Shown: positions 24,123 to 45,820, numbered from the stretch's first letter. The stretch is DNA of 64,000 bases from an uncultured Gemmatimonadota bacterium (GCA_951812955.1 OX638340.1:256001-320000), one strand, 5' to 3'. A program made the numbers and translations. The notes: a model not told the origin generated them from the letters alone.

Positions 24123-25523
24123 ATGGTGGACAGATCCTTCCTGTTCGATGACGACGCCATGCGCGACTTTATCGTAAACGGCTACCACGTGATCAACGTG
24201 GATCAGCCGGTTGCGCTCCACGACGGGATTTACGAGAAGACGAAGGCGATCATCGACGATGACGGGAATCCGGGAAACAACCTGTTGCCGCGTGTGCCCG
24301 AGATCCAACAGGTCTACGACGATCCTGCTGTTCAAGGCGCACTGACGAGCCTGCTCGGACCGGACTACGTCATGCACGCTCACCGCCACCCGCACGTAAA
24401 CCCGCCGAACAGCCGTGGAGGCAGCTGGCACAAGGACAGTTACTGGGGTTACACCAAGGTGCGGGATCACCATCCGCGGTGGATCATGGCCATGTACTAC
24501 CCCCAGGACACCCCGGTTGAAATCGGACCGACGGGGGTAATACCCGGCAGCCACTACTTCGAGTCCCGCGAAGAGACCGTAGGAGGGAACGGGTCGGTCC
24601 CAGATGGATTCCCCGCGAGCGGCAAGGCGGGAACCATTACCATCATACACTTCGACCTCTGGCACCGGGCGTTTCCGAACGCAACGGACAAGGTCCGCTA
24701 TATGATGAAATTCCAGTTTACGAGAATGTCAGAGCCGAACCGCCCCTGCTGGAACAATCAACGAGATGAAATCGACCTGGGCGACCTGTCGGACGATCCC
24801 CGGAGCGCCATGTGGCGGAACATGTGGCACTGGCTTGCCGGAAACGGCTCGGCGGGAGCCAGGCGGGAAGGCGAGGAACACGTCGAGGCGCTTGCCCGGG
24901 ACCTGACGCATGAACTCGAACAGAAGCGTTTGCACGCGGCCTATAACCTGGCCGAGTGCGGAGAATCCGCGCTTCCGCATTTCCTCGAAGCACTGCAACA
25001 CGAAAGGGATGAAGTCCGGCGTGAAGCGTGTTATGGACTAAGCGCGCTGGGTACCGCCGCCGTAGATCCGTTGGTCTCTCTGCTCGGACACGAGAACGAA
25101 CGCGTCAGGGGATACGCGGTTTACGCCCTTGGAGACATCCGGCACCACAACCCATCGGTTACGGGGCACCTCGCGGGTCATACAGACGACCCATCGCCTT
25201 TTGTCCGGCAGAACGTGGCCGATGCACTGGGCCAGATCAGGCTGGCTGCGGATTCGTCCGTTCCCGCGCTGATCGGTATGATGAAGGACGAGGATGAGCA
25301 GGTTCGGTCCAGAACCGCCTATGCGCTGGCCCGATTCGGAGTCGAGGCTCAGACGGCCGTTCAAGACCTTGCGGATGCGTGCTACGATGAAAACCGGTAT
25401 GTACAGGGGCATGCCGCCGTTGCCCTCGAACAGATCGGCACGCCAGAAGCCCTGCGCACGCTGCTGCACTGGCTGCAGGCCTCGCGGTGGTGTCCACTGA
25501 CGACGGCGAAGAGCACGTTTTAG
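24123..25523 (+). CDS. Phytanoyl-CoA dioxygenase (PhyH)-family domain fused to C-terminal PBS-lyase-type HEAT repeats
   Basis: N-terminal half has GGSWHKDSYWG and GTITIIHFDLWH (HxD...H 2OG-oxygenase ligands). C-terminal half has four or more HEAT-like repeats (..ERVRGYAVYALGDI.., ..PFVRQNVADALGQI.., ..EQVRSRTAYALARF.., ..RYVQGHAAVALEQIG..). Confidence 0.7.
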   Translation: MVDRSFLFDDDAMRDFIVNGYHVINVDQPVALHDGIYEKTKAIIDDDGNPGNNLLPRVPEIQQVYDDPAVQGALTSLLGPDYVMHAHRHPHVNPPNSRGGSWHKDSYWGYTKVRDHHPRWIMAMYYPQDTPVEIGPTGVIPGSHYFESREETVGGNGSVPDGFPASGKAGTITIIHFDLWHRAFPNATDKVRYMMKFQFTRMSEPNRPCWNNQRDEIDLGDLSDDPRSAMWRNMWHWLAGNGSAGARREGEEHVEALARDLTHELEQKRLHAAYNLAECGESALPHFLEALQHERDEVRREACYGLSALGTAAVDPLVSLLGHENERVRGYAVYALGDIRHHNPSVTGHLAGHTDDPSPFVRQNVADALGQIRLAADSSVPALIGMMKDEDEQVRSRTAYALARFGVEAQTAVQDLADACYDENRYVQGHAAVALEQIGTPEALRTLLHWLQASRWCPLTTAKSTF

Positions 25524-27620: not shown

Positions 27621-27687
27621 CAGCAGGCCGTCGCGGCGTATGTCCTTGCGTCAGCAGGCCGTCGCGGCGTATGTCCTTGCGTCAGGC
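27621..27687. repeat. Tandem direct duplication, 31 bp x2 plus partial third, between the sulfatase stop and the membrane-protein start
   Basis: cagcaggccgtcgcggcgtatgtccttgcgt at 27621-27651 and again at 27652-27682, then cagGCAG. The sulfatase stop (27682-27684) overlaps the end of copy 2. Confidence 0.9.
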
Positions 27688-29031
27688 AGACTGGCGTTCC
27701 CGCCATTCGACCTCCATGGGATCGGGGATGGCGTAGGGTTTGACGCGTTGTTCGTGCAGCCACTCCGACAGGTAGTGATCCATGCGTTGCTGGATTTCCG
27801 GCCGTTCCAGGGCCAGGTTGTACGTCTGATTCGGGTCGTTACGCATATCATACAAGGCCACTGGATCGAACCGGTAACCGAAGTCGTCGTACGTCCTGAC
27901 CATGAGATGGCCGGGTGTCCGCACCGCCCGTTGCAACGTGTACAGGCCGTGACCCCAGACCAGGAAGTCGTGCAGGTGGCAGCGTCCGGTCGCGAGTCCT
28001 TCCGCGAAAGACCGGCCGTCATAGTATTCCGGTACTTCCCCGCCAATCAGGTCGATCAGCGTGGCGCTGAAATCTACATTGTATAGCAGGTCGTCACAAG
28101 AGGATCCTGGCGGCGTAGTCCCCGGCCACTTGATGATCAGCGGGACCCGGTGTATGCATTCGTCGGCGCAGACGTGATCCCCGTAGATGCCGTGCTCTCC
28201 CATGGCCTCGCCGTGATCCGCCGAGACGATGACCGCCGTGTCGTCCAGGCTGCCCAGGGCGTCCAGCACCTGCTCCACGTGATGGTCGGCGTACCGGATC
28301 TCCGCGTCGTATCCGGTCACCAGGTGATTCAGGTCGTCCGTGTTCCGGATGGCGTCCGGCATATTCGGCGTGGGACTGGGCCGGTTCTGGGGAAAGAGGT
28401 GGGACGCGGTGAACCAACCGTCGATGTCCTGGTGGCCGCGGATCGCTTCGTTGTCCGGCCAGCTCACCGCCGGCGGATGGGCCGTCATACGTTCGAACCG
28501 GTCGCGGGGGGCTTCGTAAACCCGGTGCGGGTCCCAGTAGTTGATGTACAGGAAGTAATCGTCCCGGTCGCCGTTCGCGGCGATCCATTTCAGTACGGCT
28601 TCGTTGACCTCGTCCGCCGTCTCGTCCCCCGTCTTCAGGTTGGGCGAATGGAACTCCGACCAGCCCAGCCCGAACCAGGTCGCGCAGTGCCGGGTGGGGA
28701 AGTTGGAGAAGCAGACCGTGTCGTAGCCGTGCTGGCGCAGCCGTCTTTGCACCAACTGGTTCCGCTCGTCGGGCCCGCCGTAGCGCTGCTCCAGGATGTG
28801 AAGCCTGGAAGCGGGACCGCCGTGGGTCACCACGCCGTTGTTGATCCCGAAACGGCCGGTTATCCAGCCGTGCCGCGAAGGCATGCAGGGAGAGTCTGCG
28901 CAGTAGTACCGGTCGAACCGCATCCCCTGCGCGGCGATTTCATCGATGGCGGGCGAGGTGGGCCGGCCGTAGCCGTAGCAACCCAGGTGGTCGGGCCTCA
29001 GACTGTCGATGTCGAAATAGACGATGCGCAA
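27682..29031 (-). CDS. Sulfatase (formylglycine-dependent arylsulfatase family), no signal peptide
   Basis: N-terminal YCADSPCMPSRHGWITGR matches the C-x-P-x-R...TG sulfatase signature. The protein starts directly in the catalytic core, so it is predicted cytoplasmic. Confidence 0.85.
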   Translation of the reverse strand: MRIVYFDIDSLRPDHLGCYGYGRPTSPAIDEIAAQGMRFDRYYCADSPCMPSRHGWITGRFGINNGVVTHGGPASRLHILEQRYGGPDERNQLVQRRLRQHGYDTVCFSNFPTRHCATWFGLGWSEFHSPNLKTGDETADEVNEAVLKWIAANGDRDDYFLYINYWDPHRVYEAPRDRFERMTAHPPAVSWPDNEAIRGHQDIDGWFTASHLFPQNRPSPTPNMPDAIRNTDDLNHLVTGYDAEIRYADHHVEQVLDALGSLDDTAVIVSADHGEAMGEHGIYGDHVCADECIHRVPLIIKWPGTTPPGSSCDDLLYNVDFSATLIDLIGGEVPEYYDGRSFAEGLATGRCHLHDFLVWGHGLYTLQRAVRTPGHLMVRTYDDFGYRFDPVALYDMRNDPNQTYNLALERPEIQQRMDHYLSEWLHEQRVKPYAIPDPMEVEWRERQSA

Positions 29032-29070: not shown

Positions 29071-30351
29071 CTACGCCGCAACGGCCTTGTCGATGATTAC
29101 CTTCATCTTGTCGCCGTGTTTGTGTCGGCTGGCGGCTTCGATGAGGGCTTCGATGGGCAGAAACCCGTTGTCCTGGAGCCAGTGGGCGATGGCGGCCAGT
29201 GCGGCGCCTTTCGGTCCGCCCGTCTTTCTGAAATCCCCGGTCACCACGTTGGACGGACCGGACTGATCGGGCGGATCGAGCGGACCGGGACTCCCTCCAA
29301 GCTCGGTACCAAGCTTCTCGTCCGCGATCACAAGGGTGTGGCCGCCGATGCGGGACTGCACCTTGTCCAGCCCATCCTGCGATATGACGATCATGATGTC
29401 GGGACAGTCGATCCCGGTGTAATGGATGGGGTCCCTGGAGAGGATGACTTCCGCGACGGAAAACCCCGTGCCGATCGTGATGGGGTAATCGCCCTTCTTG
29501 GTGGCGGACAGGCCGGCCGTAATGCCCGCGGTGGACAGCAGGTCACCCGCGGACTGAATGGCCTCACCGGCCGAACCGGCGACGATGATCTCCAGGCGGC
29601 CGTCCAGCGGCGCATCGCATGTGCGTTCGATTGGTTTCAATCCATCCAGCAGGGAGCGGCCGGTAGCCCGGTGCGGCATGCCAACCGCGCGACTGTTCCG
29701 CGTTACTACGCTCTCGTAGTCCGCCGTATCATGGAGTTCCTGTACTTTCCTCAATCCGTACGCAGGACACATCTCCACGATTTCGATGAGGGAGAATCCG
29801 GAGGTGGACAGGGCCTCCTTCCAAAGCTCTGACGTGTCCTTGCCGATGAACGTCCGTGCGGTGTACGCCGCGCCGGCGTTGTGCGCCAGGGCGCAGATGT
29901 CGTATCCTGGCACGGCCGATTCCGGGCGCTCCGGTTCTTTGAACTCGGTGGAGGACAGTCCACTGGTCTGTCCGCCCGTCATCCCGTATACCATGTTGTT
30001 CTGAACCACGAGGGTGAGATCCAGATTGTGCCGTGCCGCTTCGAGCAGGTGCTGCAGGCCGATCGTGGCGCCACCGTCGCCCTGCAGGGCGATGATCTTC
30101 TTCTCCGGATGCTCCAGTCCCATGCGGATGCCCATGGCCAGGGCGACCGCCCGGCCGTGGAGCCCGTGAATGGTGTGGCAGGTCAGGAGCGGATCAACGA
30201 GCCCCGTGCAGCCGATGTCGCTTACCACGATGACGTCGAGCGGGTCCACGTCCATGTCCGCGATCGCCTTGCTCATGGATTTGTTGGCGACGGTATGACC
30301 ACAGCCCGGGCAGTAGGGCATTTTCAGGTCATTCAGGATGGTTTCCTGCAT
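29071..30351 (-). CDS. korB: 2-oxoacid:ferredoxin oxidoreductase beta subunit (TPP-binding) fused to a C-terminal gamma-subunit domain
   Basis: N-terminal CPGCGH..DIGC..GLHGRA, then GDGG...VYGMTGGQ TPP motifs. C-terminal about 150 aa (LEIIVAGSAGEAIQSAGDLL...GDYPITIGTGFSVAEV) looks like a POR-gamma domain. GGAAGGAG SD. Overlaps korA by 19 bp. Confidence 0.75.
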   Translation of the reverse strand: MQETILNDLKMPYCPGCGHTVANKSMSKAIADMDVDPLDVIVVSDIGCTGLVDPLLTCHTIHGLHGRAVALAMGIRMGLEHPEKKIIALQGDGGATIGLQHLLEAARHNLDLTLVVQNNMVYGMTGGQTSGLSSTEFKEPERPESAVPGYDICALAHNAGAAYTARTFIGKDTSELWKEALSTSGFSLIEIVEMCPAYGLRKVQELHDTADYESVVTRNSRAVGMPHRATGRSLLDGLKPIERTCDAPLDGRLEIIVAGSAGEAIQSAGDLLSTAGITAGLSATKKGDYPITIGTGFSVAEVILSRDPIHYTGIDCPDIMIVISQDGLDKVQSRIGGHTLVIADEKLGTELGGSPGPLDPPDQSGPSNVVTGDFRKTGGPKGAALAAIAHWLQDNGFLPIEALIEAASRHKHGDKMKVIIDKAVAA

Positions 30352-31466
30352 TGCCTTACTCCTTCCGCGATCTCCTGCGGGGTGATCATATTGCCGATTT
30401 TGTTGACGCCGAATACCCGGCCGTCCTGACGGTTGCCAAAGAGCAGTTCCCGTAGCAGGCCGGAGATATTTTCTTCCACGACGACGATGTGCTCGTATGC
30501 ATCAAGCAACTCGTAGATACGCGGCGGTACCGGCAGCAGCGTTTTCATGACCAGGAGCGAAACGGAGTCGCCGCCCGAGCGGAGTGAACCGACCGCTTCC
30601 CTCGCGGCTTCCGCCGAGATGCCGTAGGTCAGGATGACCGTGTCGGCGTCCTCGGCCCGATCATGGTCGTAAAAGGTGTAATCATCGATACGCTGTTCGA
30701 TCTTGTTCTTGAGCCGTTCGGTATTGCCGAGGGCTTCGGGGCTGTTCTTCTGCGTAATACCTTCCATGTCATGGGTAGATGAATTCAGCCGGACCTGGTG
30801 CAGGTCGTTGCCCAGTGGCAGGAATGGCGGCGCCAGGTTCCCGTTGACCCCGTAAGTCTTGTACTCCCCATTTCCTTCGAACACGTGGCGTTCCGCCCGC
30901 TGCACTTCCCTCAAGCTGGAAATGTTCATGTTCTGGTTGGTCATGACCATTTCCTTCGAGGTCAATAACACCACCGGTGTGCGGAGGTTTACCGACGTAT
31001 GCACGCTGGCGGCCGCCATGTCCCAGCAATCGTTCAGGTTCGAGGGACAGAACACCGGAATCGAATACCCTCCGGAGATGCAACCCCTTAGGAGGAGCAG
31101 ATCCCCCTGGCCGCCCGTGGTGGCCGAACCGGTACTCGGCCCGAGGCGCTGGGCGAGGATAATGACCATGGGCAGTTCCATCATGAAGGACATGTTGATG
31201 GATTCGATCATCAGGGCGAAGCCTGGAAAGGCGGAGGCGGTGACAGGAAACACGCCCGAAGACGAAAAACCTGCGGACCACTGTAGCGCGGTGATCTCGT
31301 CCGGTGCTTCCAGGGCAATGGGGATGCGCTGTTTGGCGCCCGCGAAGAGCCAGTTGACGGGGGTGATGGGGTATCCGATGTAAGCGCCCACCCCGGCCCG
31401 GGCCATCGCTTCGATGATCAGTCTGGATCCGTCCAGAAAGACCATGCGTTCACCGTCAGCAGTCAT
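30333..31466 (-). CDS. korA: 2-oxoacid:ferredoxin oxidoreductase alpha subunit
   Basis: 377 aa. ...GYPITPVN...AGFSSSGVFPVTASAFPGFALM...GPSTGSATTGGQGD... are the signature blocks of KorA/PorA domains I and II. Confidence 0.8.
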   Translation of the reverse strand: MTADGERMVFLDGSRLIIEAMARAGVGAYIGYPITPVNWLFAGAKQRIPIALEAPDEITALQWSAGFSSSGVFPVTASAFPGFALMIESINMSFMMELPMVIILAQRLGPSTGSATTGGQGDLLLLRGCISGGYSIPVFCPSNLNDCWDMAAASVHTSVNLRTPVVLLTSKEMVMTNQNMNISSLREVQRAERHVFEGNGEYKTYGVNGNLAPPFLPLGNDLHQVRLNSSTHDMEGITQKNSPEALGNTERLKNKIEQRIDDYTFYDHDRAEDADTVILTYGISAEAAREAVGSLRSGGDSVSLLVMKTLLPVPPRIYELLDAYEHIVVVEENISGLLRELLFGNRQDGRVFGVNKIGNMITPQEIAEGVRQCRKPS

Positions 31467-31481
31467 CGTCGTGTTCTCCGG

Positions 31482-33497
31482 TTATTCCTGCATGGATTCC
31501 GCCACGATCTCGGCGATATCCCGGACCCGCATGGGTTCGCCGGCCCGCTTGTTGGCGTCGTTCATCATCCTGGCACAAAAGGGACAACCCACGGCCAGGG
31601 TATCAGCCCCGGTTTCTCTGGCCTCCCGGAAGCGATTATCGCTGACCGCTTCCCTGCCTTCTTCTTCTTCTTTCCAGACCTGGGCGCCGCCCGCTCCGCA
31701 GCAGAATGACCGGTTCCTGCTCCGGGCCATCTCCACCAGGTTTGGCCCGGCGGCCGCCAGCGCTTCCCGAGGCGCTTCGTACTCGCCGCCGTGGCGTCCC
31801 AGATAACACGGGTCGTGATAGGTTGCCCGCGTCCCTTCCTCTCCGTTTACCGCGATCCTGCCGTCGTTCCTGAGATCGGCGATGAGCTGCGTGTGGTGCA
31901 TGACCTCGTAACGCCCACCCAGCGCGCCGTACTCGTTCTTCAGGGTATGGAGGCAGTGGGGGCAACCCGTGACGATGCGTTTGCGGTCGGCGCCCGCCGC
32001 GTTCAGCGTTTCGATGTTGCCTTCGGCAGCCATACTGAAAAGATACTCGTTTCCGGCTCTTCGCGCCAGATCTCCCGTGCAGGACTCGTCATTCCCAAGC
32101 ACGGCGAAGTCTATACCGGACCGGTGCATGACCGTGGCGATGGCCCGTGCCGTGTCCCGGGCGCCCGGGTCGAATGCTCCGGCGCAGCCGACCCACAACA
32201 GCACGTCGTAGTCCGGATTCTCCGCGACCGTCGGTACCTTGAAATCCAGGGCTTCGGTCCATTCCATGCGGTCTCCGGCCATCTGCCAGGGATTGCCGTT
32301 TCGCTCGATTCCGGTAAAGGCGCCTTTCAGTTCATTCGGAAAGGCACTTTCCATCAGCACCTGGTTCTGGCGCATGGAAAGGATGTCGAACATGGGTTCG
32401 TTGCCGACGGGGCAGGCTTCGGTACAGGCCCCGCAGGTCGTACACGCCCACAGCGCGCTTTCGCTTATGGCGTAGGTGAGTAGCGGTTCTTCGTCGCCTC
32501 CACCCGTCGCCAGGGATTTCATGTGATCGCGGAGGTGGTACCGCTTGTTCACCTCGAGGGCCGCCGGCGACAATTCCTTGCCCGTGGCATAGGCGGGACA
32601 GGCGTCCTGGCACCTGTTGCACATGATGCAGGCGAAAGCGTCCGTGATGTGGGTCCGGTTCAGGTCGGTGATCCGGCCGGCACCGAACTGCTCGATGGAT
32701 TCGTCTTCGAAATCCAGGGCATCCATCGCGCCGGGACTGTTTCGATCCGGGGACGTCATCAGGTTGAAGGGGCCCATAAACAGGTGGGCATGTTTCGAAT
32801 AAGGGAACCAGGGAAGGAAGGCCAGAACAAGGCCGACGGCGATCCACCAGCTGGCATGCAGCCCTGCAGTCTGGAATGAAGGTTCCAGGTCCGCCAAGAG
32901 TCCGGCTGCCAGCGCGGCAACAGGCTGCCAGGGGTCCGGTCCGTGTATGGCGATGTCGAAAGAAGCGCCCAGCAGCCGGAAACCGACGTGGCCGAGGATG
33001 AAAAACCCCACGATCAGGGAATCGCGTTTGATACCGTCCACCGCGCCCGGGTGCAATTTAACCTGCGGAGCGACGTCGAGGGTCCTGGACTTCACGATGA
33101 ATCGTCGGATGAGCAGGACAACCATACCTGCCAGCACCGCCGCAGTCATTAGATCGACGAGGAGCCGATATATCCGCCCGGCGGCGTTCTCGCCCGGGAA
33201 AACGAAGCCGGGTACCATGCCTTCCAGCACGTCTATCAGGTTGACTGCCACGTAGAGGATAAACCCCCACGCGATCGCCGTGTGCGCCAGGGAAACGAAA
33301 GGCCGGTTTCGGATCATGTTGTTCTGGCTGACCACTGCCTTGATCCCGGTCATCAACCGGCCGGCAGGTCTGTCCCAGGACAGGCGCCCCTGGCCTCGCG
33401 TAATTATGCGAATCATGCGCCGAAAGGTGACGGATGCCAGGTACAGCGAGACAACTGCGACGATCGCGAAGAGGATTTTTTCGATGGGAGAAAGCAT
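31482..33497 (-). CDS. Membrane-anchored Fe-S oxidoreductase (2x[4Fe-4S] plus two cysteine-rich CCG domains); ETF-linked quinone oxidoreductase type
   Basis: N-terminal 5-6 TM helices, then CIMCNRCQDACP and CTTCGACTEACP ferredoxin motifs. C-terminal CCG-like repeats (GCAGAFDP...CTGD; CCGAGGA...GCPFC). Directly downstream of etfBA. Confidence 0.8.
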   Translation of the reverse strand: MLSPIEKILFAIVAVVSLYLASVTFRRMIRIITRGQGRLSWDRPAGRLMTGIKAVVSQNNMIRNRPFVSLAHTAIAWGFILYVAVNLIDVLEGMVPGFVFPGENAAGRIYRLLVDLMTAAVLAGMVVLLIRRFIVKSRTLDVAPQVKLHPGAVDGIKRDSLIVGFFILGHVGFRLLGASFDIAIHGPDPWQPVAALAAGLLADLEPSFQTAGLHASWWIAVGLVLAFLPWFPYSKHAHLFMGPFNLMTSPDRNSPGAMDALDFEDESIEQFGAGRITDLNRTHITDAFACIMCNRCQDACPAYATGKELSPAALEVNKRYHLRDHMKSLATGGGDEEPLLTYAISESALWACTTCGACTEACPVGNEPMFDILSMRQNQVLMESAFPNELKGAFTGIERNGNPWQMAGDRMEWTEALDFKVPTVAENPDYDVLLWVGCAGAFDPGARDTARAIATVMHRSGIDFAVLGNDESCTGDLARRAGNEYLFSMAAEGNIETLNAAGADRKRIVTGCPHCLHTLKNEYGALGGRYEVMHHTQLIADLRNDGRIAVNGEEGTRATYHDPCYLGRHGGEYEAPREALAAAGPNLVEMARSRNRSFCCGAGGAQVWKEEEEGREAVSDNRFREARETGADTLAVGCPFCARMMNDANKRAGEPMRVRDIAEIVAESMQE

Positions 33498-33555
33498 CGG
33501 CGTCCTGCGATCTCGATGTGCCGCCGTGTGAAAACGCGATGCACGGTGTACCGGA

Positions 33556-34542
33556 TTACCGGCCCAGCCGTTTCCTCACTTCTTCCACGATGGCGGGCAG
33601 GTAACTGAACAGGTCGCCGGCGATGCCGTAATGGGCGTACTTGTAGAGCGGCACGTCGGCGTCCTTGTTGATCGCGACGATCACGCGGGCGTTCTTCATG
33701 CCCGCCAGGTGTTGTATCGCGCCGGAGATCCCGCACGCAATGTACAGGTCCGGCTGAACCGTCTTACCGGTCTGGCCGACCTGGTGGACATAGGGAATCC
33801 AACCGGCGTCCACCGCGGCCCGGCTCGCGCCGAGCGCGCCGCCCAGGGCGTCAGCCAGTTCCCGTACGGGCTGAAAGCCCTCCGGTCCGCCCACGCCGCG
33901 GCCGCCGGAGACGATGATGCTGGCTTCGGTCAGGCTGACCTTGCCGTCCGCGGTCTCGACGGACTCCACCCGGGTTGGGATCTCGTCTTCTGCCTGTTCG
34001 GCAGGAATGTCTACGGCTTCCCCGGTCCTGGATTCATCCCCGTAGGCGGGTTGGAATACATTGCGCCGTACCGTGATAATCCGGTGCCCGGTTCCTGTGA
34101 ATTTCACCCTGGAAACCAGGTTGCCCACCAGGGCTGGTCGGACCGCGACCAGCTGGTCTCCCTCGATGTGCAGGTCCGTGCAGTCCGGCGCCAGGCCCGC
34201 ATCGGTGAGGGCGGCGACATAGGCCGTTAGCTCGAGGCCAGCCGTACTTGCCCCCGCCAGGATTACGGAGGGCGGTTCGTTCTCCAGAATCCGCGCCAGC
34301 AGTTTCGCATAGGGCTCTACCCGATAGCGGACCAGGGAAGCGTCTTCCGTGGTATATACGCGGTCCGCGCCGGCTTCAATGGCCTGCCTTGCGATATCGG
34401 CGACCTGGTCGCCGAAAACGACGGCGGTCAGGGATCCGTCGAGATCGCCGGCGACTTTCGACGCGGCAGCCATCGCCTGCCAGGCGATCGGGTCCGCCTG
34501 CCCATCCTCCTGTTCAATCCATACGAGTACGTTGCTTGCCAT
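33556..34542 (-). CDS. etfA: Electron transfer flavoprotein alpha subunit
   Basis: 328 aa. C-terminal FAD-binding block ...[14 protein letters not shown]...[16 protein letters not shown]...[15 protein letters not shown].... Confidence 0.9.
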
Positions 34543-34563
34543 CCGTAATGCTTCCGCCTAGAT

Positions 34564-35355
34564 CTAGATCACTTTTTCTTCAATCAACCGGTCCACGAGA
34601 ATCCTGGCGGCATCTTCGGGACCGCCATCGATCATTTCGACATTCGCTTCCCTGATCGGGGGAAGCTCCGCCTGCCAGGCGACCTTCGAAGCACCGGCAC
34701 CTACAGCGGACGCATCAAGACCGAGATCTTCACATTTCCAAACGGGAATACTGGCCCTGGCCGCCTTTCGTATGCCGATGAGACTCGGGTACCTGGGCTC
34801 GTTGATCTCCTTGACGACGGTGATCAGCGCCGGAAGGCGGCTGGTGACCGTTTCCCGTGCACGCTCCAGCAGGCGTACCGCTGTAATGGTCCGGGCCGAC
34901 GGATCCAGGCTCTTGAGATCCGCCACGTAGGAGACGAGCGGGACGCCGAGCAAGGCCGCGATCTGCACGGCCGTCGCGGCGGTATTGCCGTCTATCGCCG
35001 CCCTTCCGCCCACGATCAGATCGAATGCACCGATCCTGCGGATGGCGGCGACCAGGATGCGCGCCGAAGTGAGGCAGTCGCTGTCCGCCATGACCGGGTC
35101 AGACACAAGAATGGCTTCATCCACCCCCATGGCCAGGGCGGTCTTCAACGCGTCGGCGGCTTCGGGAGGTCCCAGGCAAAGGGCAGTCACCTTGCCGCCG
35201 TGCTCCTCCCGGGTCTGTATGGCCGTTTCCAGGGTATACTCGTCCCAGGGATTGACGATCCGGGGACCGCCCTCGGCGGAGAGTCTCATGCCGTCCATGG
35301 CGGCGGACAACTGGGCCGTATCGGGCGTCTGCTTCACCAGGGCGATGATATTCAA
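34564..35355 (-). CDS. etfB: Electron transfer flavoprotein beta subunit
   Basis: 263 aa. MNIIALVKQTPDT...VNPWDEYTLETAI...DLIVGGRAAIDGNTAATAVQIAALLGVP is the classic EtfB pattern. Confidence 0.9.
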   Translation of the reverse strand: MNIIALVKQTPDTAQLSAAMDGMRLSAEGGPRIVNPWDEYTLETAIQTREEHGGKVTALCLGPPEAADALKTALAMGVDEAILVSDPVMADSDCLTSARILVAAIRRIGAFDLIVGGRAAIDGNTAATAVQIAALLGVPLVSYVADLKSLDPSARTITAVRLLERARETVTSRLPALITVVKEINEPRYPSLIGIRKAARASIPVWKCEDLGLDASAVGAGASKVAWQAELPPIREANVEMIDGGPEDAARILVDRLIEEKVI

Positions 35356-35394
35356 CTAAACGTTACCTCGTCATGACAGTACGGCTGTACCTGG

Positions 35395-36597
35395 TCAGTT
35401 CTGCCAGTAGTCCGGATCGAAGGCGGGCATTTCGCACCGGAGCGGCCGGTCGGTCCGGTTGCCGAACACGTAATCAGCCTGCATGAGCTGGTGTATCTGC
35501 GACGTGCCCTCGTAGATCACGGCGCTCTTGCTGTTGCGCAGATGGCGTTCCACGTCATATTCGTCGGAGTATCCGTAGGCGCCGTGCACCTGTACCGCGT
35601 CGCTGGCCGTGGCGAAGGCCGATTCGGTGCAGTACCACTTGGCCATGCTCGTCTCGCGGGTGTTCCGTACGCCCCGGTTCTTGAGCCAGCCGACCTTGCG
35701 CACCGCCAGTTCGCCCAGGTCTATACGCTGCTTCATCTGGGCGATGAGCTGTTTCACGAGTTGATGGTCGCCGATAGGCTGGCCGAAAGTCTTCCGCTGG
35801 CGGGCGTACGACACGGACGCTTCCAGGCAGTATTTCATCATGCCGACAGCACCCGCGGCGACGGTATAGCGGGCATTGTCCAGGCAGGACATGGCGATTT
35901 TGAATCCTTCTCCTTCTTCTCCAAGCCGATGGGTTTCCGGCACGGGGACCTCGTCCATGTTGATCCAGCCCGTGTTGCTTGCCCGCACCCCCATCTTGCC
36001 CTTTATGGTACCGGTTGTCAGTCCGTCCCAGCCGCGCTCCAACAGGAAAGCAGTGATACCGCGCGTACCCTCTTCCTGGCTGGTTTTAGCGAAAACGAGG
36101 AACCTGTCGGCCACGTCCGATAGTGTGATCCACATTTTCTCGCCGCTGACCAGGTAGGTATCGCCCTTCTTCCGTGCACGGCTGGTCATGGCGGCCACGT
36201 CCGATCCCGCGCCGGGCTCCGTCAGCCCGAAACAGGCTATGTGCTCACCGGTGGCCAGGGCCGGCAGGAACCGTTTTTTCTGTTCCTCCGTGCCCCACTG
36301 AAAGATCGGAAGGGCGTGCAGTCCAAGGTGGACCGCGATCGTCTCCCTTACAGACGAGTCGGCCCATTCGAGCCCCTCAGACAACAGTCCCAGGGAAATA
36401 AAGTCCATGCCGGCCCCGTCGTAACGGACCGGGAGGCAGATGCCCATGAACCCCTGCGCCGCCATCTTGGGAAGCAGGTCGTGGGGAAAGGTACCGTTTC
36501 GGTCGTGTTCCCTGATGGTCGGCAGGATTTCGTTTCGGGCGAAATCATAGACCATCTGCTCGACCATCTTGTGTTCTTCACTCAGTTCGAAATCCAT
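35395..36597 (-). CDS. Acyl-CoA dehydrogenase
   Basis: Canonical ACAD N-terminus [23 protein letters not shown] at ATG 36595-36597. ...[12 protein letters not shown]... and C-terminal ...[11 protein letters not shown].... The longer ORF begins with GTG at 36642. Confidence 0.85.
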
Positions 36598-36656
36598 GAG
36601 ACCGTCATTTGGTTTAGTGGGTAGAAACTCCGTTGCGTGCACGGGTATTGCTTGCT

Positions 36657-36687
36657 GCGGAATTCCGCCGGAACGTCCGGAATCCGG
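36657..36687. promoter_or_regulatory. Cluster of three palindromes built on CCGGA/TCCGG upstream of the acyl-CoA dehydrogenase operon (candidate operator)
   Basis: GCGGAATTCCGC is a perfect 12-bp palindrome at 36657-36668. CCGGA-acg-TCCGG and CCGGA-a-TCCGG follow, 60-90 bp upstream of the ACAD start. Confidence 0.35.
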
Positions 36688-36690
36688 AGC

Positions 36691-37875
36691 TCAGCTGCCA
36701 GCAGCCCCGGCCACTTTGCTGAAGTCTCTTCCGGGCTTTGCAGCCGGCCGGGTTACAGGGATACTTCGCATGACTTCGAGAAACCGATCCACGTCGCCGT
36801 CCGTGTTGTAGAAATGGGTGGAAACGCGGGCTCTTCCCACGCCGCCGTAAGCTCCGAATATCAACACGTTTTGATCCTCCAGGACATGGGTTACCGCATT
36901 CACATCCTCCGCGGTAAAACAGACGTTGCCGGCCCGTTCCTTGGGCGCCCTGGGCGTGATGACTTCCCAGCCCAACTCCGTCAGGCCATCCCATACGCGG
37001 GTACTCAACCGCAGCACGTGGTCCTCGATCCGGTCGATGCCGATGCCCAGCAGGCAGTCGAGGGCGTTATCCAGGATGTATACTCCAATCCAGGTCTCGT
37101 TGCCTGGCGTAAACCTGCTGGCGTCCGCCCGGGGAATGTAAGCTGAGGGATCCTTCCAATCGGGAAGAAAAGCCGGAGTGTGCCAGCCCACAAAGGGAGG
37201 ATTGAGTTCGGGTACCCGTTCCCGGTTCCAGTAGAATATGCCCACGCCATGTACGGCCATGAGCCATTTGTAGCAACTCGACACGACGAAGTCCGCGTAT
37301 TGCGCCTCGATCGGAACGGCTCCCGCGGAGTGGGTAACGTCGAGACAGAGCAGGGCGTTCTTGCGATGCACGAGATCGGACAATTCCGGCAGCGGAAGAC
37401 GCTGGCCCGTGAAGTAACTGACATGACTCACGTTGACCACCCTGGTGTTCTCATCTATTGCTTTGTCAAGATCTTCCAAGTCTGTGCGCCAGTTGTTGTT
37501 TTCAACGATTCGAAGTTCCACGCCCCGGTCCTTCAACAGGGTCCATGGAAGCACGTCCGAGGGAAACTCCACGTCGGCGACCACCACGTTGTCCCCGGGT
37601 TTCCAGTCGAGTGCGTAGACAAGCAGATTGATGCCCTCCGATGTAGAGGTCAGGAAACCAATATCATCGGACGGAACGCCGAAAAGCCGTCCGACCTTCT
37701 CCTTGCATTCCCCGGATACCACTTCCAGACGCCTGCGTCCTTCTTCACCCAGCAGCTTGTCCTCGAAGAAACGGTGGACCGCGTCACCGTGTGTCTTCAG
37801 CATGGGAGACTCGCCGCCGGTGCACAGGTGGGTAATACCCTGGGTTCCAATGAACTCGGATTGATCGATCAACAT
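36691..37875 (-). CDS. Class V aminotransferase / cysteine desulfurase-like PLP enzyme (selenocysteine-lyase-like fold)
   Basis: Start at MLIDQSEF (ATG 37873-37875) with AGGAGA SD. ...NVSHVSYFTGQRLP...LCLDVTHSAG... and ...SSCYKWLMAVHG (PLP-lysine context). Confidence 0.7.
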   Translation of the reverse strand: MLIDQSEFIGTQGITHLCTGGESPMLKTHGDAVHRFFEDKLLGEEGRRRLEVVSGECKEKVGRLFGVPSDDIGFLTSTSEGINLLVYALDWKPGDNVVVADVEFPSDVLPWTLLKDRGVELRIVENNNWRTDLEDLDKAIDENTRVVNVSHVSYFTGQRLPLPELSDLVHRKNALLCLDVTHSAGAVPIEAQYADFVVSSCYKWLMAVHGVGIFYWNRERVPELNPPFVGWHTPAFLPDWKDPSAYIPRADASRFTPGNETWIGVYILDNALDCLLGIGIDRIEDHVLRLSTRVWDGLTELGWEVITPRAPKERAGNVCFTAEDVNAVTHVLEDQNVLIFGAYGGVGRARVSTHFYNTDGDVDRFLEVMRSIPVTRPAAKPGRDFSKVAGAAGS

Positions 37876-38106
37876 CGGTTTCTCCTGGTGAACTAGGTGC
37901 GGTAATGATGCGTCTGAACCAACATAACAAAATAGGGCGCTACGCCATCGGTGTACAGCAAATTCAACGCCGGTCTTTCCCTGTGTGCCCCATCCCTTGT
38001 CCCGCCGATGGATATTCGATCCGGCCATAAAATCACGGACCCCTGAACTCATGCCCGAAGAGGCATCAGCGGAACTTTCAATAAATCGAACGAGTGCTTA
38101 TTTTAG

Positions 38107-38171: not shown

Positions 38172-39152
38172 ATGGTTCTTGATTTCCACACCCATTTCTA
38201 TACCTCCGCTTACCTTGACGAGATCGAAAAGGGAGGATACCAGGCGGTGCTGGTCAGGGACACCGACGGTAATCGCCTGCTGAAGCTGGATGGCGACTAC
38301 AGCTTGATCGCGCCTGCACACTTCGATGCCGATCGGGTGATCGAGCACATGGACCGGCATGGCGTGGATCGGCAACTCCTCACTTTTTCCATCCCGGGAC
38401 TGCACGTCGAGGAGCCCGATGCCGGTCGTCGGCTCGCCCGCGTCGTGAACGAGGCCCTTGCCGCGACCGTCGCCCACTACCCCGATCGCTTGTCGGCCCT
38501 GGCGGTCCTTCCCCTGCATGACCCGGCCGCATCGGCCGCCGAACTGTCGCGCTCCATGACCGAGCTGAATCTGCGGGGCGGGCTTCTATTCTCGAACATC
38601 AATGGCAAGTCCCCGGGGGATTCCGAGTTTCACGAACTCTACGCCGTCGCTTCGACGCTGGACGTACCGCTTTTCCTTCACCCTACCAGTCCACCTTCAA
38701 TAAAACCGTTTATGCAGTACAGGCTTACGCCCATTGCGGGATTTCCCTTCGACACCACCCTGGCTGCCGTACAAATGGTACTGAGCGGAACGATGGCGGC
38801 GTTTCCGGAATTGAAGATCGTACTCGGCAACCTGGGAGGGACCGTCCCATTTCTTGCGGGCCGGATCGATCAGGGGTACATTGCCTATCCCGAGGCCAGC
38901 GAGAAGCTGGACCGGCCACCGTCCGCATACCTCAGGAACATGTACTTCGAATCCGCGGGCATGCCCAGCGGCGGGGCGCTTCGCCTGGCGATCGACTTCG
39001 CCGGTGTCGATCGCATCATGTTCGGTTCCGACTTCCCCCAGCAGATCGCCGATGTCGACCTGGGTCTTCGAATCATTGAAGAACAGGGGCTGGATGAAGC
39101 GGACCGGCAGCGTATCGTCGGCCTCAACGCAGCAGGACTTTTGAAGATATAA
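38172..39152 (+). CDS. Amidohydrolase-2 family metal-dependent hydrolase (second paralog)
   Basis: MVLDFHTHFY (HxH metal site) and C-terminal ...MFGSDFPQ.... 326 aa. Confidence 0.75.
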   Translation: MVLDFHTHFYTSAYLDEIEKGGYQAVLVRDTDGNRLLKLDGDYSLIAPAHFDADRVIEHMDRHGVDRQLLTFSIPGLHVEEPDAGRRLARVVNEALAATVAHYPDRLSALAVLPLHDPAASAAELSRSMTELNLRGGLLFSNINGKSPGDSEFHELYAVASTLDVPLFLHPTSPPSIKPFMQYRLTPIAGFPFDTTLAAVQMVLSGTMAAFPELKIVLGNLGGTVPFLAGRIDQGYIAYPEASEKLDRPPSAYLRNMYFESAGMPSGGALRLAIDFAGVDRIMFGSDFPQQIADVDLGLRIIEEQGLDEADRQRIVGLNAAGLLKI

Positions 39153-42221: not shown

Positions 42222-44012
42222 ATGAGCTCAGGAAACGGCTGGATCCGGGTCGGAACTACGACCGACATAGCGCCCGGGGAATCCCGCGCCGTTAGAATCA
42301 GCGAGGGCCGCAGCGTTGCCCTCTTCAACGTCAACGGCCGGATACATGCTACCGACAACCAATGTCCCCACATGGGGTTTCCACTGACCCGCGGCGTGGT
42401 GAAGGACGGCATCCTGACGTGCGACTGGCATGGCCGCAGTTTCGATCTGGAAGGCGGCGGCTGCTTCAATTACGAATGCGACGACCTGGAGACGTACCCC
42501 GTCGACATTCGAGGAGATGAACTGTGGGTGCAGGCCGGGGACGCCACCTACAAGCGGCGGGACCAGCACCTGCAACTGCTCTGGGAGGGCCTGCTGAGCG
42601 GGGACTCGTGGACGATTTCGAAGGCCACTGCCCTCCTTCTGTCCGGTGGTGTTTCAGAACACGACATCGTGCAGTTGATCTTGCGCCACCTGGGCCGTCA
42701 CGTCGCGTCGGAACGGGACGCGGGCGGCGGCGGCGATGTCGTTTCACTCCTGGTCTCCGGTCTTGAAGTCGGCAAAAGGTTTGACGGAGAAGACCGGCTG
42801 ATGGCGTTGTCGCTGGCCGGCCGCGCAGCGTCGGGTAGGGCGTCGGAAAGGCTCGAGGTCATTACGCTGCCCCCTCCCGTCCGCTGGGATCAGATAGACG
42901 ACTGGGTACGCATGTTTTCCCGAAACATGCAGGATTTCCGTATCGAACGGTGTTTGCACACGGCCTGCGAGAACGGCCACCAGGACCATATCTTCAAACT
43001 GTTGTTCGAGTGTGCGGTGGCGCCGTACTTCCTCGGATTTTCCCGAAACGTGGCCAGCCTGGGTGATCTCGCAAGGGTGGTGGATACCTTCGGATGGGGC
43101 GAGGCGTCCGAACTGGTCTGCAACCTCGGCGCAAAGATGACGGGCCGAGGGCGCGACGAGCCGGAGCGGTTTCACCGGGATGCCGTCCGGCTGCTCACCG
43201 AACTCGCGCCTGAACTGGAATCACATGATTACGAAGGGAACACGCGCACGGAATACGACGAGAACGCCCTCGTGGACGCCCTGTTGAGCGTCGATATCGA
43301 GCGGTCTTTCGAAGCCGTGACACGGGCCCTGCGGGACGGCGTGGCGATCGAGCGTCTTATCACGACCTTCGTGCTGCTCGCCGCCGACCGCATGGCGCGT
43401 ACGCCCGTGAACGTCGACGCGGGGTGGGGACCGCTGTCCACCGAGTTCAACCTGGCGGCTTCCCTGCGACATGTCCACGCATACGGTGGGCCCGCTGCAG
43501 CGGCGAAGGGCCTGTACCATGCGGCCTGGCAGATTTTCGACAACCGATGGATCAATATCCCCGCACGGTCGCTCGACGAACCCCTTCCCGCCCATCGAAC
43601 GGACACACCGGACGCGGCAGCCGCTTCGGATCTCATTGTCCATTCCATCAAGTCGCTGGATATCCACGGGGTGGGCGATCAGGTGGTGGGTTACCTCAAC
43701 AGCGGATTCGACGGGTCGGACCTGCTCAAGGAAGTGGGACGGGCGATCCTGTGGGACGATACCAACATGGAGCTCCTTCCCACACTGCGCGTCGCGTTCA
43801 ACGAATGGGAAGGTTCAGGGGGTGGCGCAGGCGGCGGAGACGCAAGCGGGGGTGGCGCAGGTGGAAAGGGCCATCCGTCCCGGTATCAGCTCCTGGTGGG
43901 ACTGGTGCGCTACGCCACGGATGTGCGATTGAACAAGAACAGCATGGCCTCCATCAACACGGCCATGCGATTTTCTGAAGGCCGGACGACCGTAGAGGTG
44001 TTCGACGAATAA
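42222..44012 (+). CDS. Rieske [2Fe-2S] domain (NirD / Rieske-ferredoxin-like) fused to a ~480-aa C-terminal domain of unknown function
   Basis: N-terminus CPHMGFPLTRGVVKDGILTCDWHG (CxH-x16-CxxH) ...LETYPV. The rest is helical-looking, with no motif I recognise. Confidence 0.7.
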   Translation: MSSGNGWIRVGTTTDIAPGESRAVRISEGRSVALFNVNGRIHATDNQCPHMGFPLTRGVVKDGILTCDWHGRSFDLEGGGCFNYECDDLETYPVDIRGDELWVQAGDATYKRRDQHLQLLWEGLLSGDSWTISKATALLLSGGVSEHDIVQLILRHLGRHVASERDAGGGGDVVSLLVSGLEVGKRFDGEDRLMALSLAGRAASGRASERLEVITLPPPVRWDQIDDWVRMFSRNMQDFRIERCLHTACENGHQDHIFKLLFECAVAPYFLGFSRNVASLGDLARVVDTFGWGEASELVCNLGAKMTGRGRDEPERFHRDAVRLLTELAPELESHDYEGNTRTEYDENALVDALLSVDIERSFEAVTRALRDGVAIERLITTFVLLAADRMARTPVNVDAGWGPLSTEFNLAASLRHVHAYGGPAAAAKGLYHAAWQIFDNRWINIPARSLDEPLPAHRTDTPDAAAASDLIVHSIKSLDIHGVGDQVVGYLNSGFDGSDLLKEVGRAILWDDTNMELLPTLRVAFNEWEGSGGGAGGGDASGGGAGGKGHPSRYQLLVGLVRYATDVRLNKNSMASINTAMRFSEGRTTVEVFDE

Positions 44013-45788: not shown

Positions 45789-45820
45789 CATGGGTTGAAT
45801 CGGTTGCGAGGTGAATGGGC

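Follow-up and report, generated by a model that had tools for sequence, protein, structure and literature searches.

How a bacterium might pass the electrons of one oxidative pathway to two separate outlets, and with what kind of 2-oxoacid:ferredoxin oxidoreductase (OFOR), is the question raised by a gene cluster of an uncultured Gemmatimonadota bacterium. In the 64,000-nucleotide stretch that we analysed (GCA_951812955.1 OX638340.1:256001-320000; the window), an open reading frame (ORF) scan finds seven long minus-strand ORFs between positions 29071 and 38052. In transcription order they encode a pyridoxal phosphate (PLP) enzyme, an acyl-CoA dehydrogenase (ACAD), the electron-transfer flavoprotein (ETF) subunits EtfB and EtfA, an iron–sulphur (FeS) membrane protein of EMO/EtfD type, and the OFOR subunits KorA and KorBG (Table 1). 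OFORs are central to anaerobic and microaerobic carbon metabolism and come in few known subunit architectures, each with a structural prototype. A first-pass annotation of the sequence had described the cluster as a catabolic electron-transfer operon for branched-chain or aromatic amino acids, with an OFOR whose domain order differs from that of known gamma–alpha fusions. The OFOR, ACAD, ETF and EMO/EtfD components are of known kinds; what is new is a widespread OFOR architecture, so far uncharacterised, that mirrors the classical gamma–alpha fusion, and its association with glutaryl-CoA-type dehydrogenases.

By the agreement of Pfam, PDB profile and fold searches, KorBG is a genuine fusion of an OFOR beta and an OFOR gamma domain. 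The first-pass annotation had placed a gamma domain at the C terminus of this subunit, with alpha standing alone, and domain annotation finds both the TPP_enzyme_C and the POR gamma domain in it, the latter with an E value of 6e-8 and 33.4 bits against a cut-off of 27.4. A profile of the family matches the gamma subunits 3on3_A, 8ys5_B (Helicobacter pylori OorC) and 3g2e_A as well as domain III of 6n2n_A (the Magnetococcus marinus 2-oxoglutarate:ferredoxin oxidoreductase, OGOR), all within profile positions 253–394. In a Foldseek search with an AlphaFold2 model of KorBG (mean pLDDT 77.8, with moderate confidence in the linker), the N-terminal half matches OFOR beta chains and the C-terminal half matches five gamma subunits (target-normalised TM-score of about 0.72); the search returned no PDB chain with the beta-then-gamma order. 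The thiamine pyrophosphate (TPP) motif G91-D92-G93-G94...N118-N119 varies little or not at all across 19 family members, and residues C14, C17, C48 and C195, invariant in the family alignment, align with the proximal [4Fe-4S] ligands C19, C22, C53 and C202 of H. pylori OorB. KorA holds a YPITP motif at residues 31–35 (within GYPITPVNW), has no POR domain and covers positions 190–560 only of TIGR03710, that is, the model without its N-terminal gamma part. The window KorBG also has a 12-residue Pro/Gly-rich insertion, GSPGPLDPPDQS, at about residues 355–366 of its gamma domain, missing from 18 of 18 aligned relatives and predicted to be disordered (pLDDT below 50 at residues 354–364).

The domain order is indeed unlike that of the gamma–alpha fusions, as the first-pass annotation had remarked. 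In two-subunit, (alpha-beta)2-type OFORs (Sulfolobus tokodaii StOFOR1 and StOFOR2, 5B46 and 5B48; M. marinus OGOR, 6N2N; Hydrogenobacter KorAB), domain III is carried on the alpha N terminus, giving III-I-II plus VI, whereas in the window enzyme it is carried on the beta C terminus, giving I-II plus VI-III. The two types likewise comprise two polypeptides with a single [4Fe-4S] cluster and no internal ferredoxin domain, and for both the expected docking site of an external ferredoxin lies between domains VI and III. The closest solved relative is H. pylori OorDABC (PDB 8YS5; PMC12307629), whose alpha and beta subunits score 132 and 161 bits, the latter with the family profile; KorA also scores 146 bits against 1YD7. 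OorDABC and the window OFOR have in common the alpha–beta–gamma order, a short alpha subunit (about 375 residues), a short beta core, the four cysteines, the TPP motif and a gamma fold like that of OorC. Unlike in OorDABC, and unlike in the four-subunit Oor/Kor/Por layout generally, with its separate beta and gamma subunits and a delta subunit bearing two [4Fe-4S] clusters, beta and gamma here form a single 426-residue polypeptide with a linker of about 45 residues. No OorD-like two-cluster ferredoxin subunit is encoded at the locus, where the gene upstream of korA is emo and not a small ferredoxin gene, and the OorB arginine that aligns with StOFOR1 Lys49b is Leu51 in KorBG. The genomic partners differ too, being ACAD, ETF and EMO here and tricarboxylic acid (TCA) cycle genes for OorDABC. 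No solved structure or NCBIfam equivalog covers an alpha plus beta–gamma OFOR, and a full-text literature search, which left most subscription journals outside and is weak evidence, found no description of one; its apparent matches turned out to deal with citrate lyase and with a Nitrospira POR whose subunits are separate.

The fusion turns out to be common in sequence space. The best 120 of 1101 database matches are about 400–440 residues long, and nearly all contain both Pfam domains. A one-genome-per-species scan with the KorBG family alignment, from which 85 loci were fetched and searched by tblastn with nine window proteins, identified about 60 loci with complete fused ORFs of 410–460 residues. 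These represent a dozen or more phyla, among them Latescibacterota, Calditrichia, Bacteroidota, Ignavibacteriota, Chloroflexota, Planctomycetota, Gemmatimonadota, Delongbacteria, Desulfobacterota, Alphaproteobacteria, Bathyarchaeota and others, and the two sets of sequences together rule out that the fusion is an artefact or peculiar to the window. A stand-alone alpha gene directly precedes the korB homologue in every locus whose sequence extends that far upstream, and the approximately 60 fused genome loci contain no delta ferredoxin subunit. About 20 more distant loci (Bacillota, Geobacteraceae and Desulfobacterales) instead encode a beta subunit of 263–279 residues with a gamma match just downstream. 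Because these loci and H. pylori oorDABC keep the alpha–beta–gamma order, the simplest origin is probably the fusion of adjacent beta and gamma genes of an Oor-type arrangement, with loss of delta. A rough neighbour-joining tree built on the beta domain places the unfused short-beta enzymes in between two groups of fused ones, and a distance tree of this kind cannot tell one fusion followed by fission from two independent fusions. The linker-plus-gamma part belongs to a divergent gamma lineage: a search of 1.84 billion proteins with it finds only 439 representatives after clustering at 50%. One Fermentibacteria metagenome-assembled genome (MAG) encodes a 249-residue beta subunit that ends where the linker would start (locus L076, 9995–10744), either a secondary split or a frameshift.

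Does this OFOR act together with the genes around it? The ORFs stand at the coordinates first given, and Pfam and NCBIfam assignments agree with the gene identities first proposed (ACAD, EtfB, EtfA, membrane FeS oxidoreductase, KorA and a KorB with a gamma domain). The intergenic gaps in transcription order are 93, 39, 21, 58 and 15 bp, followed by a 19-bp overlap of korA and korBG; from the ACAD gene to korA the gaps thus stay within the 60 bp of the first-pass annotation, which had also noted the overlap and the strong Shine–Dalgarno-like sequence, GGAAGGAG, inside korA. In a pattern scan the minus-strand intergenic gaps were free of terminator-like hairpins, the total of terminator-like matches being near the shuffle expectation, and sigma-70 promoter-like sites were fewer than in shuffled sequence; neither count is informative.

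Comparison with relatives separates a conserved core from a lineage-specific assembly. The closest loci, with KorBG 95% and 91% identical to that of the window, are on a MAG chromosome (OY762445.1) and in a Candidatus Latescibacterota MAG, an affinity that places the window in Latescibacterota. The full seven-gene block in the same order is found only in L002 and L004–L007 among the 85 loci (KorBG 73–95% identical), and the short contig L008 holds emo-korA-korBG. In L002, emo and korA overlap by 4 bp, compared with a 15-bp gap in the window. In L004 the flanks differ, with ThuA and GFO_IDH genes replacing those for the amidohydrolase and PolA and an amidase gene inserted after korBG, and the seven genes stay together. 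Outside this clade the nearest locus, L001 (Latescibacterota, KorBG 54% identical), has korA-korBG only. The korA-korBG pair is thus the conserved elementary unit, and the seven-gene operon is a lineage-specific assembly, yet one that is kept intact.

A second line of evidence comes from a deltaproteobacterial MAG (L048, 4385–15147), in which genes for Peripla_BP_6 (amino-acid-type), a DAO flavoenzyme, an aldehyde dehydrogenase, KorA, KorBG, EtfB, EtfA and ETF-QO follow one another. The ETF there has a canonical-type zipper, DDENFL, and its quinone reductase, ETF-QO, is non-homologous to EMO. Judged by these gene contents, alpha plus beta–gamma OFORs have on at least two occasions come together with an ETF-to-quinone branch, with reductases that are not homologous to each other, and this independent joining supports a genuine functional OFOR–ETF pairing over chance. 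The restriction of the full gene order to a narrow clade (KorBG at least 73% identical), together with the bare korA-korBG pair of L001, is what one would expect if the window genes lay together by chance or local synteny and were not one functional unit. We regard that explanation as highly improbable: the genes overlap or nearly abut with no terminator-like site between them, links of OFOR to ACAD and of OFOR to ETF and quinone reductase recur independently in other phyla, and the same seven genes stand in the same order in relatives with different flanks, so that the cluster is more than a chance grouping.

On balance we lean towards reading the cluster as a whole as a co-transcribed catabolic module that would take a 2-oxoacid to an acyl-CoA and on to an enoyl-CoA, with ferredoxin and menaquinone as electron outlets. 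By family membership, KorA and KorBG would act as a TPP enzyme with a single [4Fe-4S] cluster that oxidatively decarboxylates the 2-oxoacid to the acyl-CoA. The two electrons would pass to free ferredoxin, since no delta subunit or ferredoxin domain is encoded. The FAD-dependent ACAD would then oxidise the acyl-CoA to the enoyl-CoA, and, by homology to characterised systems, its electrons would flow through EtfAB and the EMO/EtfD-type haem-b/FeS protein to the menaquinone pool. It weighs against this reading that every one of its steps is assigned by homology.

The quinone branch is the most readily recognised part of the module. Against PDB 9OJN (Mycobacterium smegmatis EtfD), the membrane protein gives an E value of 2.8e-109 with both the transmembrane and the soluble parts covered. 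It has five hydrophobic N-terminal segments by hydropathy, forming a NarI-like membrane domain, and His72, His214 and His236/His238 lie in motifs that align with the conserved haem-ligand histidines of the M. smegmatis protein. Two CxxCxxCxxxCP cubane motifs (C290/293/296/300 and C352/355/358/362) and two CCG/non-cubane-cluster domains follow. By this homology, the protein that the first-pass annotation called a membrane FeS oxidoreductase belongs with the ETF:(methyl)menaquinone oxidoreductases of EMO/EtfD type, a component already known, and the proposal that reducing equivalents reach the quinone pool through it and the ETF is borne out to that extent. Biochemical and structural work on the EMO/EtfD family has demonstrated that electrons pass from ACAD via EtfAB to (methyl)menaquinone (bioRxiv 10.64898/2026.08.18.745454). 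The window protein has the same three-part architecture (NarI-like haem-b, two-cubane and CCG/non-cubane) as the Syntrophus aciditrophicus and Mycobacterium proteins, and its gene likewise lies beside etfBA and an ACAD gene; the lengths are 671 residues here, 706 in S. aciditrophicus and 1042 in M. smegmatis. A link of emo to an OFOR was found in none of the examined loci outside the window clade and is unmentioned in that study.

The ETF itself admits a different electron route. EtfA and EtfB are nearest to bifurcating ETFs (CarDE, T. maritima EtfAB, A. fermentans and C. difficile): EtfA scores 264 bits against the bifurcating 6FAH_A and 165 bits against the canonical 1EFP_A, and EtfB scores 161 bits against 6FAH_B compared with 93–96 bits for canonical chains (93 for 1EFP_B). 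The best-scoring PDB relatives of both the ETF and the ACAD are parts of bifurcating systems of the Bcd/EtfAB, CarCDE and EtfABCX kinds, the top ACAD match being the butyryl-CoA dehydrogenase (Bcd) of the A. fermentans bifurcating complex. Moreover, where A. fermentans has Gly123, EtfB retains a Gly that leaves room for a second FAD, and this counts against a simple carrier. ACAD and EtfAB might then be confurcating, closing a ferredoxin loop with the net reaction 2-oxoacid + CoA + 2 NAD+ to enoyl-CoA + CO2 + 2 NADH, a stoichiometry that would fit the OFOR.

The residues around the bifurcating FAD argue otherwise. Using published definitions of the bifurcation (group 2) motifs (PMC8958531 and PMC10734219), we find that the EtfB zipper DGDTAQ reads DGNTAA in the window (Gly, Thr and Ala kept; Asp to Asn and Gln to Ala), that RxGV reads AEGG (Arg to Ala), and that GxxSPTxV reads GAGASKVAW, where SKVAW in place of SPTxV puts a bulky Trp at the flavin-contacting Val. 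In EtfA, the group-2 RPxFGG is RPALVG. The zipper Thr is invariant (100%) in 216 bifurcating ETFs (PMC10734219, PMC8958531), yet the L004 orthologue, with DGNMSA, has Met in its place. The window system further differs from the bifurcating ones in that its partner is EMO and not FixCX/EtfCX, its gene lying within the operon and pointing to the quinone route, and in that EtfA has no N-terminal ferredoxin domain. The ETF that partners Syntrophus EMO binds AMP, a vestige of FAD (bioRxiv 10.64898/2026.08.18.745454). Because the residues of the bifurcating-FAD site are mostly replaced, three of the four motifs being degenerate, and this EMO-partnered ETF binds AMP, the window ETF, of bifurcating lineage, is most likely a simple one-FAD carrier akin to the AMP-containing Syntrophus protein, and we consider the ferredoxin loop very unlikely.

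Which 2-oxoacid enters the module is best approached through the ACAD. Overall it is Bcd-like by PDB comparison, scoring 309 bits against 4L1F (the A. fermentans Bcd) and 269 bits against 3D6B, the glutaryl-CoA dehydrogenase (GCDH) of Burkholderia pseudomallei. Its Arg84, Tyr362 and Glu363 fall, ungapped, on Arg97, Tyr373 and the catalytic Glu374 of that GCDH, in which Arg97 (human Arg94), with Tyr, contacts the terminal carboxylate of glutaryl-CoA (PMC3169403). In four aligned structures of non-GCDH acyl-CoA dehydrogenases, the Arg84 position is occupied by Gly in three and Tyr in one.

The neighbours of the fused OFOR in other phyla point the same way. Neighbour clustering over 59 fused loci shows an ACAD gene to be the commonest neighbour of korA-korBG: it is present in 13, of which 11 lie outside the window clade, whereas no other family recurs in more than four. 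The median distance is 168 bp, and the orientation varies. Seven of these ACADs, from Bacteroidota and Ignavibacteriota, make up a single orthologous group, are 69–87% mutually identical and carry DSG[IV]RS and TYEGTHDIH as in the B. pseudomallei enzyme, and the Arg column is common to the window ACAD and the GCDH-type neighbours of other KorA-KorBG loci. The ACADs beside KorA-KorBG in other phyla thus belong to the GCDH and Acd families (human and B. pseudomallei GCDH; Desulfococcus multivorans Acd): on NF045552, the model for the non-decarboxylating glutaryl-CoA dehydrogenase Acd (cut-off 470), the neighbours in L059 and L058 score 777.6 and 445.9 bits. L059 (8892–14950) encodes, in order, KorA, KorBG, the Acd-type GCDH, two small ORFs and, 1.1 kb on, a Na+-decarboxylase beta subunit (OAD_beta); by gene content it looks like a cluster for converting 2-oxoadipate (or glutaryl-CoA) to crotonyl-CoA with a sodium-pumping glutaconyl-CoA decarboxylase.

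Since the ACAD has the GCDH-type Arg and the commonest OFOR neighbour elsewhere is a glutaryl-CoA dehydrogenase, the best, if tentative, candidate substrate is 2-oxoadipate, with glutaryl-CoA as its product. A substrate with a terminal carboxylate would be most likely, and the path would lead from 2-oxoadipate through glutaryl-CoA to crotonyl-CoA or glutaconyl-CoA, as in the lower lysine/aminoadipate route, with the OFOR replacing the 2-oxoadipate dehydrogenase complex. An OFOR that yields glutaryl-CoA would thus be a 2-oxoadipate:ferredoxin oxidoreductase, an activity of which we know no prior description.

Several observations weigh against this assignment. The window ACAD is only 35–39% identical to the GCDH-type neighbours, reaches 311.6 bits against the cut-off of 470 on NF045552, and reads IYEGTSQIH, with SQ and not HD after YEGT, so lacking the THD of the GCDH motif TYEGTHDIH; it scores highest in the PDB against butyryl-CoA dehydrogenases. 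An Arg at the Arg84 position is also found in 3-sulfinopropionyl-CoA desulfinase, so that this residue indicates an anionic tail, not necessarily a glutaryl group. In the OFOR pocket only two specificity positions could be mapped, those of StOFOR1 Lys49b (Arg in OorB) and Leu123b, which according to the OFOR literature tune 2-oxoglutarate use, and in KorBG they are the hydrophobic Leu51 and Met124. The family is also functionally mixed, other subclades adjoining genes for isocitrate dehydrogenase and aconitase, or for a phosphotransacylase and an acyl kinase. Finally, the linkage of OFOR to glutaryl-CoA dehydrogenase in Desulfobacterota could reflect a 2-oxoglutarate enzyme serving the benzoyl-CoA pathway.

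Some of these points would suit the substrates first proposed, branched-chain or aromatic 2-oxoacids delivered by a transaminase to a VOR/IOR-like OFOR, with the ACAD acting on isobutyryl-, 2-methylbutyryl- or other short-chain acyl-CoA. The ACAD's best structural relatives are the butyryl-CoA dehydrogenases 4L1F and 5OL2_C, the two mapped OFOR pocket positions are hydrophobic, one subclade adjoins phosphate butyryltransferase, acyl kinase and Na:solute symporter genes, which fits short or branched acyl-CoA, and a PLP enzyme gene lies upstream. We nevertheless consider these substrates unlikely. Arg84 stands at the position of the GCDH carboxylate binder, the ACAD neighbours in other phyla are glutaryl-CoA dehydrogenases, and the catalytic base occupies the position found in medium-chain acyl-CoA dehydrogenase and GCDH (YEG), so the enzyme is not isovaleryl-CoA-dehydrogenase-like. 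In NCBIfam, KorA and KorBG score best on Kor/Oor models and poorly on VorB, PorA and IOR, all far below the equivalog cut-offs, and the PLP enzyme resembles desulfurases and lyases more than transaminases.

Those Kor/Oor matches, and the closeness to H. pylori OorDABC, might instead speak for a plain 2-oxoglutarate:ferredoxin oxidoreductase, which would make succinyl-CoA for the TCA cycle or serve as a ferredoxin helper and would share only regulation with the ACAD. In another fused subclade (L011, L033, L036, L040 and L044), a gene of the isocitrate/isopropylmalate-dehydrogenase family lies 97 bp downstream, accompanied by an aconitase-family gene and an ADP-forming acyl-CoA synthetase gene, a context that suggests a TCA-type 2-oxoglutarate enzyme or a homoisocitrate/2-oxoadipate setting. 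For the window enzyme we think the 2-oxoglutarate assignment improbable, given that the NCBIfam scores are so far under the cut-offs, that Leu replaces the OorB Arg, and that both the recurrent, orientation-independent adjacency to GCDH-type ACADs and the close packing against emo point to a common pathway. A 2-oxoadipate substrate remains our preferred reading.

The step that would supply the 2-oxoacid is less secure. The first-pass annotation had drawn a complete route from amino acid to 2-oxoacid, acyl-CoA and enoyl-CoA with ferredoxin and quinone sinks; the part from the 2-oxoacid onwards stands as a reading of the genes, and the amino-acid-to-oxoacid step is not established, because the relatives of the PLP enzyme are desulfurases and lyases. 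The name aminotransferase reflects only its Pfam fold. The enzyme probably starts at M59, at position 37878, from which its relatives align and with which the Pfam match agrees. Its best NCBIfam match is SufS, at 124 bits against a cut-off of 475; its best PDB matches are SufS, CsdA, the cysteine/cystine C-S lyase C-DES and kynureninase; and models of PhnW, a true class-V transaminase, give 21–33 bits. No bona fide transaminase is among the matches listed, save chains that merely bear the name aminotransferase in their database entries. The motif SSCYKW contains the PLP lysine. A cysteine desulfurase role can be rejected, as direct reading of the sequence shows the SufS RTGHHCA loop segment to be deleted with no replacing Cys. 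It could be a transaminase, or else a lyase with a 2-oxoacid as product, and may supply the module with its oxoacid. An Amidohydro_2 (ACMSD/LigW-type) gene, which L004 lacks, runs divergently from that of the PLP enzyme. A kynurenine-pathway reading, in which a kynureninase-like PLP enzyme and the amidohydrolase acting as ACMSD would lead to 2-oxoadipate, was set aside and is a lead only, the amidohydrolase having no NCBIfam match and being replaced in L004.

Downstream of korBG, a sulfatase gene may extend the transcription unit. It and the following DUF6785 gene are syntenic in L002, L004, L006 and L007, and nothing beyond this synteny within a narrow clade supports their membership in the pathway. 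An FGE-sulfatase gene lies near the cluster in L004. Convergent with the window DUF6785 gene is a gene in which a PhyH-type 2-oxoglutarate/Fe(II) dioxygenase domain is fused to a long run of HEAT repeats, and such a PhyH–HEAT gene also lies beside the cluster in L002 and L004. Further along the window, two tandem genes encode proteins of about 590 residues with an N-terminal Rieske [2Fe-2S] domain of about 100 residues, the remaining approximately 480 residues of both having no Pfam or NCBIfam match; a molybdoenzyme gene directly follows the pair.

Table 1 Window positions of the seven-gene cluster, of elements within korA and korBG, and of flanking genes
Feature	Position	Strand	Basis or remark
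Class-V-fold PLP-dependent enzyme, 395 aa from M59	36691..37878	-	Pfam Aminotran_5 2e-41; ORF extends to 38052
Acyl-CoA dehydrogenase (ACAD), 400 aa	35395..36597	-	Pfam, three ACAD domains, 1e-23 to 1e-45
EtfB, ETF small subunit, 263 aa, TTG start	34564..35355	-	Pfam ETF 2e-39
EtfA, ETF large subunit, 328 aa, FAD-binding	33556..34542	-	Pfam ETF and ETF_alpha, 1e-37
EMO/EtfD-type ETF:(methyl)menaquinone oxidoreductase, 671 aa	31482..33497	-	Pfam 2x Fer4 and 2x CCG, 3e-29
KorA, OFOR alpha subunit, 377 aa, domains I and II	30333..31466	-	Pfam POR_N 3e-30 and PFOR_II
Shine–Dalgarno-like GGAAGGAG within korA 3' end	30359..30366	-	7 nt upstream of korBG ATG (30351); sequence read directly
KorB (KorBG), 426 aa	29071..30351	-	TPP_enzyme_C residues 46-191 (5e-26) and POR gamma residues 262-414
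OFOR beta domain (domain VI), KorBG residues 1-205	29737..30351	-	TPP_enzyme_C; OorB alignment; Foldseek 6n2n_B, 8ys5_C
Linker, KorBG residues 206-250, replacing canonical beta C-terminal tail	29602..29736	-	PDB beta matches stop at about residues 197-229
OFOR gamma domain (domain III), KorBG residues 251-426 and stop codon	29071..29601	-	Pfam POR, profile, Foldseek
Cys-type sulfatase, CMPSR motif, without signal peptide (cytoplasmic)	27682..29031	-	Pfam Sulfatase and SGSH_C; 39 bp downstream of korBG
DUF6785/DUF6784 polytopic membrane protein, 656 aa	25618..27588	-	Pfam DUF6785 7e-115; 93 bp downstream of sulfatase
PhyH–HEAT protein	24123..25523	+	
Amidohydro_2 protein	38172..39152	+	
First Rieske-domain protein	42222..44012	+	
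Second Rieske-domain protein	44037..45788	+	
SorA/SoxC-like sulfite dehydrogenase molybdoenzyme	45815..47122	+	

The alpha plus beta–gamma OFOR without delta has no structural prototype, though it is found in many uncultured phyla that dominate sediments, and the operon brings together, in compact natural form, genes for a low-potential electron outlet (ferredoxin) and a high-potential one (ETF/EMO/menaquinone). Nothing in it is so surprising mechanistically as to stand out, but it is a good target for enzymology. More speculatively, and with the odds against it, alpha plus beta–gamma OFORs might be widespread, unrecognised 2-oxoadipate:ferredoxin oxidoreductases that, in Bacteroidota, Ignavibacteriota, Latescibacterota and Desulfobacterota, stand in for the 2-oxoadipate dehydrogenase complex in the breakdown of lysine and aminoadipate and possibly in the kynurenine pathway. 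Because the OFOR has no delta subunit and its gene abuts emo, it is even conceivable that it docks on the FeS domain of EMO, so that electrons from the oxoacid and from the acyl-CoA would enter the menaquinone pool through one membrane protein. If true, ferredoxin-dependent oxidation of 2-oxoadipate would fill in an anaerobic-style step that lysine catabolism has been missing, and hundreds of MAGs could be annotated better.

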